A stretch of 64,000 bases of DNA, from sequence record NC_054929.1; one strand, written 5' to 3'. The notes beneath the pieces are model-generated. The model worked only from the letters and a program-made list of their open reading frames with translations, was not told where the DNA came from and did not search any database. The translations under genes were made by a program, and so were the position numbers. This document shows positions 1,759-31,820 of the stretch, one piece after another (the stretch's first letter is position 1; each line of letters opens with the position of its first letter). This stretch comes from Escherichia phage PE37.

Positions 1759-2250
1759 TTATTCCCAATAATCGAGAGCAAGAGTTACTTCAAATGTTTG
1801 GATTTCATTGTTTGAATCCCAATCTAATTGAAGTTCACCCACGTTAGTAGGCCACAGACCTTTAATTTCAATTTCTTTTGTTACTGTTTTAGCGTCACGA
1901 GCATATTGACGAACGATAGCGCTCTTTTTATACTCTGCAGGTTTTCCACCAGTAATTTCGTTTCCTTGTCCTGCAGCAATGCTTTGCCAATCAACAAACT
2001 TCTGGCGAGCATCATGAGCTTCATCGTTCATTACTGTAACAGTCCAGTCATCGAATGTACGATCACCTGCTACGTTAATTTTACGGTTCATAAATCCGAC
2101 TGGAATTTTTTCTACAATACCAGCTGGTAAAGCAGTGGCTTTACATTGAAACGTAAAATTTTGTCCAAGATAAGAAATTTCTACTTGGAATAAGTTAGGT
2201 CGCGCAAAATCACCAGATTCAAACGCTCGTGTTACATCATCTACAAACAT
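1759..2250 (-). CDS. 19: tail tube protein gp19
   Basis: 163 aa, MFVDDVTRAFESGDF..., T4 gp19 length and sequence from memory; TATAAATA late promoters upstream. Confidence 0.95.
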   Translation of the reverse strand: MFVDDVTRAFESGDFARPNLFQVEISYLGQNFTFQCKATALPAGIVEKIPVGFMNRKINVAGDRTFDDWTVTVMNDEAHDARQKFVDWQSIAAGQGNEITGGKPAEYKKSAIVRQYARDAKTVTKEIEIKGLWPTNVGELQLDWDSNNEIQTFEVTLALDYWE

Positions 2251-29726: not shown

Positions 29727-29799
29727 TGGGAATTAGCCAAGTTGGTAAGGCACTGGATTTTGATTCCAGGATGCAAAGGTTCGAGTCCTTTATTCCCAG
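29727..29799 (+). tRNA. tRNA-Gln (anticodon UUG)
   Basis: Cloverleaf folded by eye: acceptor TGGGAAT/ATTCCCA, anticodon loop TTTTGAT, T-arm GGTTCGAGTCC; CCA not encoded. Confidence 0.8.
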
Positions 29800-29800
29800 C

Positions 29801-29887
29801 GCGAGAATGGTCAAATTGGTAAAGGCACAGCACTTAAAATGCTGCGGAATGATTTCCTTGTGGGTTCGAGTCCCACTTCTCGCACCA
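29801..29887 (+). tRNA. tRNA-Leu (anticodon UAA), type II
   Basis: Acceptor GCGAGAA/TTCTCGC, loop CTTAAAA, long variable arm, CCA encoded. Confidence 0.85.
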
Positions 29888-29892
29888 AATTT

Positions 29893-29966
<74 letters not shown>

Positions 29967-29976
29967 ATTTAATTTA

Positions 29977-30050
29977 CTCCGTGTAGCTCAGTTTGGTAGA
30001 GCGCCTGATTTGGGATCAGGAGGTCCAAGGTTCAAATCCTTGTATGGAGA
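29977..30050 (+). tRNA. tRNA-Pro (anticodon UGG)
   Basis: Anticodon arm CCTGA-TTTGGGA-TCAGG, T-arm CAAGGTTCAAATCCTTG; acceptor has G-U pairs; CCA not encoded. Confidence 0.8.
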
Positions 30051-30052
30051 CT

Positions 30053-30142
30053 GGAGGCGTGGCAGAGTGGTTTAATGCACCGGTCTTGAAAACCGGCAGT
30101 CGCTCCGGCGACTCATAGGTTCAAATCCTATCGCCTCCGCCA
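30053..30142 (+). tRNA. tRNA-Ser (anticodon UGA), type II
   Basis: Acceptor GGAGGCG/CGCCTCC, loop CTTGAAA, long variable arm, CCA encoded. Confidence 0.85.
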
Positions 30143-30147
30143 GTTTT

Positions 30148-30223
30148 GCTGATTTAGCTCAGTAGGTAGAGCAACTCACTTGTAATGAGAAGGTCGGCGG
30201 TTCGATTCCGTCAATCAGCACCA
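30148..30223 (+). tRNA. tRNA-Thr (anticodon UGU)
   Basis: Acceptor GCTGATT/AATCAGC, loop CTTGTAA, CCA encoded. Confidence 0.85.
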
Positions 30224-30224
30224 A

Positions 30225-30299
30225 GGCCCTGTAGCTGGAAGGTTCAAGCAAGCGACTCATAATCGCCAGATGGTGGTTCAATTCCACCCAGGGCCACCA
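30225..30299 (+). tRNA. tRNA with CAU anticodon (Ile2 lysidine-type, or Met)
   Basis: Acceptor GGCCCTG/CAGGGCC, loop CTCATAA, CCA encoded; T4 tRNA-Ile counterpart by position. Confidence 0.8.
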
Positions 30300-30308
30300 A
30301 ATTAATTT

Positions 30309-30395
30309 GGGGAGTTATCCCGTAGAGGTAGCGGTGTGGACTGTAAATCCATTGTCATTGCGACTCGGGTGGTTCGACTCCATCACTCCCCACCA
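30309..30395 (+). tRNA. tRNA-Tyr-like (anticodon GUA), type II
   Basis: Acceptor GGGGAGT/ACTCCCC, anticodon arm GTGGA-CTGTAAA-TCCAT, variable arm with GTC/GAC stem, T-arm GGTGGTTCGACTCCATC, CCA encoded; D-arm imperfect. Confidence 0.6.
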
Positions 30396-30399
30396 ATTT

Positions 30400-30474
30400 G
30401 GATGTGTAGCTCAATGGCAGAGCGATCGCCTGTTAAGCGATTGGTTATAGGTTCGAATCCTATCACGTCCGCCA
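30400..30474 (+). tRNA. tRNA-Asn (anticodon GUU)
   Basis: Acceptor GGATGTG/CACGTCC, anticodon arm ATCGC-CTGTTAA-GCGAT, T-arm ATAGGTTCGAATCCTAT, CCA encoded. Confidence 0.8.
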
Positions 30475-30478
30475 AATC

Positions 30479-30554
30479 CGAGGCATAGCTCAGAAGGAAG
30501 AGCAAGGACCTTCTAAGTCCTAGGTCGTAGGTTCGATCCCTACTGCCTCGACCA
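30479..30554 (+). tRNA. tRNA-Arg (anticodon UCU)
   Basis: Acceptor CGAGGCA/TGCCTCG, D-stem GCTC/GAGC, anticodon arm AGGAC-CTTCTAA-GTCCT, CCA encoded. Confidence 0.85.
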
Positions 30555-30570
30555 ATTAAGTGAGGAAAAT

Positions 30571-30921
30571 ATGAAAGGTAATGTTTATTTAGTAGTTCAT
30601 GATTTAACATTTTATTTTAATCACAATGACACGGTTATTTCTGAACGTGTAATTAATTTGCTTTATCAACACGCGGATTATGTTTATGTCGAAAACGAAT
30701 ATGGTCATTGGCAATTTCTCAAAAATCGTTCATTTGGCTTAGATGGTTACGAATACTTTGAACGTAAAGACCTTTTAGATAAAATTTCGTTATCTACACA
30801 ATATCAAAATCATAAGTCTTTACATAAATGTCGGCTAATTCGAAATGCTGAATCTGCTTATGAAGCAATTGATTTATGGCGTTTACGCCGTGAACAAATT
30901 GATGCTTTAAAAGAATATTAA
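30571..30921 (+). CDS. hypothetical protein
   Basis: 116 aa ORF starting 17 nt after tRNA-Arg, RBS GAGGA. Confidence 0.55.
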   Translation: MKGNVYLVVHDLTFYFNHNDTVISERVINLLYQHADYVYVENEYGHWQFLKNRSFGLDGYEYFERKDLLDKISLSTQYQNHKSLHKCRLIRNAESAYEAIDLWRLRREQIDALKEY

Positions 30922-31099
30922 GAAACCGGGTCGCTACCGGTAAGTCGTCGGACTGATGTTCCCTGTTTAAGGACTGGCATTAATAAATCTTTATGTTTTG
31001 TTAATGTCCTCTTATATCACAGCAGAAACGGCGCACCGAATTATCGATTCGAGGAAATATCTTTGCCGTAAGCCGAGTAGCGTTTTTGACGGAACGTTC

Positions 31100-31235
31100 G
31101 GATATGGTCGAGATATGGCCTTTTAAAAATATTGAGTAGCGTCAACTGCTTAATAACCGGGTTCGAATCCCGGCGTTTCGTACAAACACTTGCCTTAGCA
31201 GGTGGAACCCCGACAAGGTTGCCGCAAGGCTTAGA
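31100..31235 (+). ncRNA. putative small stable RNA (T4 species 1/2 rnaC/rnaD-like), boundaries approximate
   Basis: 390-nt ORF-free interval after the tRNA cluster with a tRNA-like T-arm (CCGGGTTCGAATCCCGG), repeated GAGTAGCGT, ending at a terminator; T4 has stable RNAs near tRNA-Arg. Confidence 0.3.
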
Positions 31236-31262
31236 CCCGACCGAAAGGTTGGGGCTTTTTGG
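31236..31262 (+). terminator. rho-independent terminator (copy 1)
   Basis: Hairpin CCCGACC-GAAA-GGTTGGG followed by CTTTTT. Confidence 0.7.
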
Positions 31263-31270
31263 TATAAATA
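31263..31270 (+). promoter_or_regulatory. late promoter TATAAATA
   Basis: Exact TATAAATA about 40 nt upstream of the 31311 ATG. Confidence 0.6.
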
Positions 31271-31310
31271 TAGTAGTATATTAAATCCACGAATTAAAAC
31301 AGGAAATAAG

Positions 31311-31784
31311 ATGAAATCATATACTCAATTTTTAAATGAAGCGGTGTTAAATGAAGCATCTAGCACCGAAATTCAAGCTGTCGCAAAAGCAGCCATTGCA
31401 GCGGGTAAATATTCTTACAAAGATGCTTCTGATGAATCGCGATTCCAGTTTGCACGCGACATGAAAGCGGAAGGATTTACGGGAAATGCAGTTAGTATGG
31501 CCTGGAAAAGTTTAGTTGCTACTGGCGCTGCTTTTGCAAAGGCTTCGGGTAAACCTGCTCCTAAAGCAGATCCTAAAGTCGCACAAGAGAAAAATATTGT
31601 TAAAGGAATTATCTCCAAATATGAAGCTATCCTTAAAGAGCTTTTAGTAATCAAAACTGAAGGCCAAAAACTAGCTCGTGCTTATAGTTTCAAAGATAAC
31701 CCACATGCTCACTCTCTTGAGTATGTTGAAGACATCCAAAAAATTATTAAAGACCGCATTTGGTCTGCTAAACAAATCAAATAA
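31311..31784 (+). CDS. capsid-targeted internal-protein candidate
   Basis: 157 aa; N-terminus MKSYTQFLNEA resembles the internal-protein capsid targeting sequence; late promoter upstream. Confidence 0.65.
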   Translation: MKSYTQFLNEAVLNEASSTEIQAVAKAAIAAGKYSYKDASDESRFQFARDMKAEGFTGNAVSMAWKSLVATGAAFAKASGKPAPKADPKVAQEKNIVKGIISKYEAILKELLVIKTEGQKLARAYSFKDNPHAHSLEYVEDIQKIIKDRIWSAKQIK

Positions 31785-31793
31785 CATTCTTAG

Positions 31794-31820
31794 CCCCGAC
31801 CAAAAGGTTGGGGCTTTTTG
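31794..31820 (+). terminator. rho-independent terminator (copy 2)
   Basis: CCCCGACC-AAAA-GGTTGGGG + CTTTTTG, near-identical to copy 1. Confidence 0.7.

Follow-up and report, generated by a model that had tools for sequence, protein, structure and literature searches.

The tRNA-like domain of tmRNA and the Y-RNA-like YrlA RNAs of bacteria have ends that pair as a mimic of the acceptor and T arms of tRNA around a large insert unrelated to tRNA, and these RNAs are stable and handled by tRNA enzymes. In HIV TAR/TAR* and in RNA I/RNA II of ColE1, hairpins meet through fully paired kissing-loop complexes of 6-7 nt. Two stable small RNAs, encoded by rnaC (species 1 or I) and rnaD (species 2 or II), lie next to the tRNA genes of bacteriophage T4. 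The species 1 RNA was reportedly sequenced in 1975, and a dimeric species 2-species 1 precursor is said to have served as a substrate of RNase P. The T4 cluster is transcribed as a precursor of ∼1.75 kb that comprises eight tRNAs and the species I and II RNAs, with termination downstream of the species I gene, and T4 can do without the tRNA region on laboratory hosts (PMC2330249). Both RNAs accumulate late and have been validated by northern blot (PMC9697503, 2022), and when a T4-like phage was evolved on a semi-permissive host, one convergent SNP in rnaD appeared in every line (PMC12685909, 2025). Their roles have been described as unknown from 2010 through 2025 (PMC3014915, 2010; PMC9697503, 2022; PMC12685909, 2025).

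Here, we have analyzed the counterpart of these two genes in Escherichia phage PE37 (NC_054929.1). The window, that is, the whole stretch of DNA under analysis, has a length of 64,000 nt, and a preliminary description made from its letters had pointed to an ORF-free, structured interval at 30925-31235, downstream of the tRNA cluster.

The rnaD and rnaC genes of phage PE37

The window belongs to a T4-like (Tequatrovirus) phage and contains ten tRNA genes on the + strand at 29727-30554, as identified by ARAGORN and Rfam: Gln, Leu, Gly, Pro, Ser, Thr, Met/Ile, Tyr, Asn and Arg. This set matches the RB9 cluster (the same ten in the same order, without segB) and not the T4 type. With the Rfam tRNA model (gathering score 29), tRNA-Tyr (30309-30395) reached 30.2 bits, and the other nine tRNAs scored 59-74 bits.

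A blastn search against 50,697 phage records matched the interval in 805 of them, nearly all from T4-like coliphages and their relatives. The curated features beneath these matches were rnaD and rnaC (RB9, T4, RB3, RB27 and Kha5h). In the T4 reference (NC_000866), rnaD is annotated at 71053-71171 and rnaC at 70908-71046, and in RB9 both are annotated as ncRNA. Alignment with T4 and RB9 revealed near-identity along the entire interval, and both annotated ends of each T4 gene mapped onto 30918-31037 (rnaD) and 31044-31182 (rnaC). The rnaC interval was 98.7% identical to T4 rnaC and 100% identical to 'rnaC: species I RNA' of RB3 (AJ884578), and it was matched in 768 phage records, 499 of which had at least 99% identity, some of them with an rnaC annotation. 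Judged by this sequence comparison, the two segments are the orthologues of T4 rnaD (species 2 RNA) and rnaC (species 1 RNA). Thus, since it aligns with the annotated genes of T4 and RB9 and its rnaC part is identical to that of RB3, the interval is the counterpart of the two stable small RNAs of T4, just as the preliminary description had proposed. The element is already known and is expected in a T4-like genome. In many T4-like GenBank records, a 'hypothetical protein' CDS is annotated across rnaC and rnaD; such CDS are probably artefacts of ORF prediction across genes for non-coding RNAs, and a covariance model like the one described below (R1) would correct these annotations.

The features of the locus are listed in Table 1. 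As in T4, rnaD is followed by rnaC on the same strand at the 3' end of the tRNA cluster, with the same terminator. In T4 and RB9, rnaD begins 1 nt after tRNA-Arg, whereas in PE37 an ORF of 116 aa intervenes, so that the 5' end of rnaD must arise otherwise than in T4. With its stop codon (30919-30921), this ORF extends into the first bases of the rnaD homology. The ORF is missing in T4 and RB9, and was found in the same arrangement in the Tequatrovirus phages 132, KIT03 and Pinarejo and in Mosigvirus KMB38. It had no match in Pfam, and a PHROG/Pfam search of the flanking ORFs returned only families of unknown function (phrog_3355 and phrog_2280).

Table 1 Features of the rnaD-rnaC locus in the PE37 window
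Feature	Positions	Strand	Basis or remark
tRNA-Arg	30479-30554	+	Last tRNA before the 116-aa ORF
116-aa ORF	30571-30921	+	Between tRNA-Arg and rnaD; phrog_3355; context, outside the RNAs
rnaD orthologue (T4 species 2 RNA)	30918-31037	+	Mapping of T4 rnaD ends
rnaD 5' hairpin, ACCGG-GUCGCUA-CCGGU	30925-30941	+	Folding and covariation
rnaD hypervariable apical hairpin	30976-31008	+	Folding and comparison of 13 sequences
Spacer GAATTA between rnaD and rnaC, 6 nt	31038-31043	+	Alignment with T4 and RB9
rnaC orthologue (T4 species 1 RNA), 139 nt	31044-31182	+	End mapping, fold and covariation
rnaC acceptor-like stem, 5' strand	31045-31051	+	Pairs with 31174-31180
rnaC long arm in the place of the D arm	31052-31121	+	∼26 bp, interrupted by bulges and internal loops
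Loop L1, UUGACG, at the tip of the long arm	31086-31091	+	Complementary to L2
rnaC unpaired GG beside the junction	31117-31118	+	Candidate for a G18G19-like T-loop contact
rnaC A-rich single-stranded linker, UUUAAAAA	31122-31129	+	A residues conserved
rnaC anticodon-like hairpin	31130-31155	+	10-bp stem, 6-nt loop
Loop L2, CGUCAA	31140-31145	+	Reverse complement of L1
rnaC T arm	31157-31173	+	5-bp stem, canonical UUCGAAU loop; adjoins the 3' acceptor strand directly
rnaC acceptor-like stem, 3' strand	31174-31180	+	Followed by U31181, A31182 and a conserved CAA (31183-31185)
3' trailer	31183-31235	+	7-bp hairpin at 31187-31204; conserved in T4 and RB9
Intrinsic terminator	31236-31262	+	CCCGACC-GAAA-GGUUGGG, then GCUUUUUGG

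With regard to coding capacity, the earlier statement that the interval has no plausible ORF was confirmed: in the ORF list of the window, no ORF of at least 60 aa overlapped 30925-31235. What remains there are ORFs that start with TTG, one of 42 aa (30998-31126) and one of 50 aa (31132-31284), and some shorter ones; the 50-aa frame reads through the terminator. The strong terminator with which the interval was said to end is real, with a 7-bp stem and GAAA loop at 31236-31253 followed by GCTTTTTGG; the interval as drawn ends directly before it, at 31235, and does not include it. At the other side, the rnaD homology begins at 30918, 7 nt ahead of the start of the interval (30925).

Fold and distribution of rnaC

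Analysis of folding energies showed that all three parts of the region fold better than their shuffled sequences, with z values of -2.0 for 30918-31037, -4.55 for 31044-31182 (MFE) and -2.65 for 31183-31265. The MFE structures of the window rnaC and of the most divergent copy, JD18 (z = -4.33), contained the same four-way junction. In rnaC numbering, it is composed of an acceptor stem (2-8/131-137), an interrupted arm of ∼70 nt (9-78), an A-rich linker, a 10-bp hairpin with a 6-nt loop (87-112) and a T arm (114-130).

To examine this fold across phages, a covariance model (R1) was built from 17 sequences and used to align 27 distinct rnaC copies from 10 genera. Standard pairs were present in 95.0% of the cells (27 sequences) vs 38-47% when the partners were slid by 1-3 columns; it should be noted that the R1 alignment was fitted to the nested helices, and that the individual MFE folds agree with it. 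Changes on both sides were observed in 35 of the 47 rnaC pairs, a count that excludes the U.U columns because they are stored as unpaired, and none of 500 shuffles reached the observed measures. Compensatory changes occurred in 20 of the 21 pairs of long-arm helices 2-5 and in all 10 pairs of the anticodon-like stem (helix 7). In the acceptor stem, A4-U135 alternates with G-C (column pair 4/142), and C7-G132 is replaced by U-A in JD18 (column pair 7/139). The T4-type acceptor stem has two U.U mismatches, whereas that of Jiaodavirus JD18 is fully Watson-Crick, with U-A at column pair 5/141 and A-U at the adjoining pair in its MFE fold. The third pair of the T stem is G-C, U-A or A-U, JD18 differs in each of the three basal pairs of the long arm, and the sequence of the long arm has been swapped wholesale between lineages with its helices retained. 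Among the divergent copies, the fold of the Marfavirus rnaC was not distinct from shuffles (z = -0.09), and the T loop was non-canonical in Kanagawavirus Q7622 and Winklervirus. Our data show that rnaC forms a tRNA-like four-way junction, in which an acceptor-like stem is placed on a canonical T arm, an arm of ∼70 nt replaces the D arm, and an anticodon-like hairpin is present.

Similarity to canonical tRNA is concentrated in certain parts of the molecule. The 7-bp acceptor stem closes the RNA end to end and is stacked on a T stem of 5 bp, whose loop is UUCGAAU (helices 1 and 8, conforming to GTTCRANYC), and both the four-way junction and the location in a tRNA cluster are shared with tRNA. 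In contrast, rnaC is 139 nt long (70-95 nt in a tRNA), has the ∼70-nt arm and no cloverleaf with a D arm, lacks a variable region, carries an 'anticodon' stem of 10 bp with a loop of 6 nt and not 7 nt, ends in the T4 type with the 3' tail ACAA and not CCA, and is recognized neither by ARAGORN nor by the Rfam tRNA model. Its paired 5' and 3' ends, which mimic the acceptor and T arms with a large non-tRNA domain within, are like those of tmRNA and YrlA. Unlike tmRNA, it has no tag ORF, no G3.U70 and no tmRNA call by ARAGORN; with respect to YrlA, we know of no Ro/Rsr partner in E. coli.

Searches for known families gave a consistent picture. ARAGORN called no tRNA and no tmRNA in 30555-31300. 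At the gathering score, the 4227 families of Rfam 15 yielded only the 10 tRNAs in the window, and rnaC and rnaD matched no family. The best sub-threshold match in the interval was tRNA-Sec, with 16.6 bits vs a gathering score of 47, and the tmRNA and Y-RNA families of Rfam gave no match in the interval even at E ≤10. The preliminary description had reported several hairpins, a perfect T-arm-like element and two copies of a short repeat, but no canonical full cloverleaf. The hairpins are supported by the folding energies given above, and the absence of a cloverleaf agrees with the lack of tRNA calls by ARAGORN and Rfam in the interval. The T-arm-like 17-mer, CCGGGTTCGAATCCCGG, is indeed present as an exact match at 31157-31173. 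It had been listed among 'tRNA-like fragments'; these are not loose pieces, and the T arm belongs to the complete tRNA-like four-way fold of rnaC. The repeat, GAGTAGCGT, was likewise recovered, with exactly two copies in the 64-kb window (31075-31083 and 31134-31142) against 0.15 expected; two copies were reached in 1 of 100 shuffles. Within the long arm, the former copy bridges the sub-apical helix and the 5' strand of the apical hairpin, and the latter leads from the 5' side of the anticodon-like stem into the loop of this hairpin. As a stand-alone motif, GAGTAGCGT was rejected: only UAGCG(U) is kept outside Tequatrovirus, and the copies largely represent the 5' strands of the two hairpins whose loops are discussed in the next section.

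An alternative acceptor pairing, ACGGAACG/CGUUUCGU, in which ACGGAACG (31089-31096) pairs with the 3' end, was also tried and rejected, as it showed no compensatory change and was broken in 13-19 of the 27 sequences. This pairing underlies the weak tRNA-Sec match and an ARAGORN 'tRNA-Met' in Enterobacter phage SonariX, where the 3' 95 nt of rnaC (L003 2550-2644) are called 'tRNA-Met (CAT)' by both ARAGORN and GenBank; we consider this a false positive, based on pairing without covariation.

The 3' tail of rnaC is U-ACAA in most genera and U-CCAA in Marfa- and Jiaodavirus; if the U is taken as the discriminator, rnaC of the latter two would encode CCA. The unpaired GG beside the junction (31117-31118) is GG wherever the T loop (31162-31168) is UUCGAnn, and is changed to CG in exactly four sequences, those of the Kanagawavirus Q7622 type and of Winklervirus, in which the T loop is UGCAU-type. 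This joint change, which goes back to only one or two evolutionary events, suggests that the GG may make a D-loop/T-loop-like contact resembling the G18G19/T-loop elbow of tRNA.

Homologs of rnaC were collected by iterated blastn from divergent copies and by pattern scans. They were identified in at least ten genera of Tevenvirinae: Tequatro-, Mosig-, Gapriver-, Karam-, Kanagawa-, Winkler-, Moon-, Marfa-, Gelderland- and Jiaodavirus. Beyond the Tequatrovirus group, the copies have no adjoining rnaD. Karam- and Gelderlandvirus records have rnaC between tRNA-Trp and tRNA-Gly. A tRNA ends 4-5 nt before rnaC in Karam-, Kanagawa-, Gelderland- and Jiaodavirus, and the next tRNA follows 5-11 nt beyond rnaC in Karam-, Gelderland- and Winklervirus; its spacing within tRNA clusters is tRNA-like. 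No rnaC was detected in two pattern scans that covered 185,579 species genomes of bacteria and archaea, and scans of metagenomes and IMG/VR revealed no members beyond the genera already found. One GC-rich IMG/VR contig (L047, 4147 bp; 2080-2105, minus strand) matched a 26-nt motif of the rnaC 3' end (T loop, 3' acceptor strand and CCAA); it had no match to the covariance model and no ARAGORN tRNA, and was treated as a chance match or an unrelated tRNA-like 3' element. The rnaC family thus spans at least ten Tevenvirinae genera and has no match to an Rfam 15 family in this window.

Complementary loops and the companion RNA rnaD

The apical loop of the long arm, L1, is the exact reverse complement of the loop of the anticodon-like hairpin, L2. 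The pair is UUGACG/CGUCAA in the T4 type and most genera, UUGGCG/CGCCAA in the Marfavirus-like clade (6 of the 27 aligned sequences) and UUGCAG/CUGCAA in Jiaodavirus (JD18 and KPV15; 138 records). Six Watson-Crick pairs can be formed between L1 and L2 in all 27 sequences, vs 17-49% paired when the loops were slid, and the L1-L2 pairs are outside the R1 structure and did not enter into the fitting of the alignment. The pair types are AU, GC and CG at one position and CG and AU at another; the remaining four of the six pairs never vary, and only two lineages (Marfavirus-like and Jiaodavirus) contribute to the covariation. On this comparative basis, there is good evidence that L1 and L2 pair, which indicates a kissing-loop contact. 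As in TAR/TAR* and RNA I/RNA II, the loops are perfectly complementary and every loop base is pairable; the difference is that both loops of rnaC reside in one molecule, or meet between two copies of it. To our knowledge, no Rop-like partner protein exists for the kissing loops of rnaC. The pairing could be intramolecular (a kissing pseudoknot), could join two molecules (dimerization) or could belong to an alternative fold. An intramolecular kiss requires that the arm of ∼26 bp be bent back onto the 10-bp arm. The DNA sequence TTGACG was also considered as a -35 box and rejected, since a -10 element to go with it is missing and its changes are matched by changes in CGTCAA, as expected for pairing in RNA.

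In Klebsiella phage KaAlpha (L006 1928-2069), the stems of the two kissing hairpins of rnaC are complementary to each other as well, and the MFE structure is a long-range helix of 19 bp and not two hairpins. In this predicted structure, the long-range helix could act as a conformational switch.

The second RNA of the locus has a much narrower range. rnaD is confined to Tequatro-, Mosig- and Gaprivervirus and is far more variable than rnaC (77-99% identity). In a set of 13 distinct sequences, 8 of 31 rnaD pairs covaried. The 5' hairpin has one covarying pair, the outermost, in which A-U alternates with G-C (pair 8/24: AU in 8 sequences, GC in 5), and the two closing helices are invariant in the 13 sequences and thus silent for covariation. 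The central hairpin (30976-31008), whose sequence in PE37 differs from that of T4, consists of unrelated sequences in different lineages with the hairpin itself kept. rnaD is without the acceptor/T-arm module. Pairing between the two RNAs was considered as well: the only complementarity found was 6 nt long, between CGCUAC in a loop of rnaD and GUAGCG in rnaC, and an rnaD-rnaC interaction was rejected because the duplex energy was no better than that of shuffles (34 of 300 were as good). rnaD may be a lineage-restricted companion RNA, whose variable hairpin hints at fast-evolving and possibly host-specific recognition.

Processing and possible functions of the RNAs

We consider it highly probable that the interval contains the genes for rnaD and rnaC at the 3' end of the tRNA operon, that both are co-transcribed with it and that they are cut from the precursor. 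In this scheme, transcription of the + strand would proceed through the ten tRNAs, the 116-aa ORF, rnaD and rnaC up to the terminator, after which rnaD and rnaC would be excised. Tentatively, from tRNA biology and the tRNA-like spacing, the acceptor/T-arm minihelix would lead RNase P to cut the 5' end of rnaC, and the 3' end would be a substrate of tRNA 3'-trimming and possibly CCA-adding enzymes; rnaC would then owe its metabolic stability to its tRNA-like ends. Taken as a whole, our analysis suggests that rnaC is most likely a tRNA mimic that is processed by the tRNA enzymes of the host.

What such a mimic does may be approached from several sides. The RNAs may be decayed tRNA genes or spacers with a role in cis only, as processing sites, 3' protection or terminator of the tRNA transcript. 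This explanation, which we find unlikely, would fit the observations that rnaC retains just those tRNA features that are read by enzymes (acceptor stem and T arm), that it invariably occurs within tRNA clusters, that most genera are without rnaD and that the region is dispensable on laboratory hosts (PMC2330249). It has difficulty in accounting for the ∼40 pairs kept by compensation across 10 genera, which include a long arm and a loop-loop contact needless for processing, and for the near-invariance of rnaC in Tequatrovirus (at least 99% identity in 499 of 768 records) while the adjoining rnaD and ORFs vary; moreover, the mature RNAs are abundant enough for northern blots (PMC9697503). With a comparably low probability, rnaC may be a non-decodable tRNA mimic, its anticodon loop locked by the kiss, that occupies or diverts a tRNA-recognizing factor, either a defence nuclease of the host that targets tRNAs or a tRNA-processing or -modifying enzyme. 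We are still more hesitant about a broader version, according to which rnaC would be a widely conserved mimic of T4-like phages serving as a decoy or sponge for a host tRNA-recognizing factor, for example a defence of the anticodon nuclease type or a tRNA-processing enzyme. If rnaC were such a decoy, an RNA that has been an orphan for 50 years would turn out to be a counter-defence or host-takeover element.

Base-pairing in trans offers a different explanation, in which rnaD and/or rnaC would act as sRNAs on host or phage mRNAs via single-stranded segments or loops. Conserved unpaired segments exist (the A-rich linker of rnaC and the GUCGCUA loop of rnaD), the hypervariable hairpin of rnaD could follow variable targets, and the convergent rnaD SNP arose during host adaptation (PMC12685909). 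However, L1 and L2 are complementary to one another and hence not free, no target was found, the sole match being the 6 nt between rnaD and rnaC with a duplex equalled by 34 of 300 shuffles, and a review of 2010 stated that no trans-acting sRNA of T4 had been functionally characterized by then (PMC3014915). We regard an sRNA function as rather doubtful. Far less probable, to the point of being hardly credible, is that the interval encodes small proteins. Hypothetical-protein features do lie beneath the match in many records, and the TTG-start ORFs of 42 and 50 aa could be cited for it, but these ORFs are short and TTG-initiated and the 50-aa frame passes through the terminator. Furthermore, where genera differ, the substitutions compensate one another within RNA helices, the long arm has exchanged its whole sequence but kept its structure, and the curated records of T4, RB3 and RB9 annotate RNAs at this interval.

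A fold backed by covariation provides experimental handles on the function of these RNAs, a question that dates from the 1970s. For example, two point mutations could break and then restore the L1-L2 contact (31086-31091/31140-31145).

Finally, beyond the terminator, PE37 differs from T4 by an additional cassette. The terminator after rnaC is duplicated ∼555 bp downstream, at 31792-31818, and a T4 late-promoter motif, TATAAATA (31263-31270), and an ORF of 157 aa (31311-31784, phrog_2280) are located between the two copies. The cassette is absent from T4 and RB9 and is flanked by a direct repeat of ∼35 bp (31233-31262 and 31790-31820); it looks like an insertion relative to both phages.
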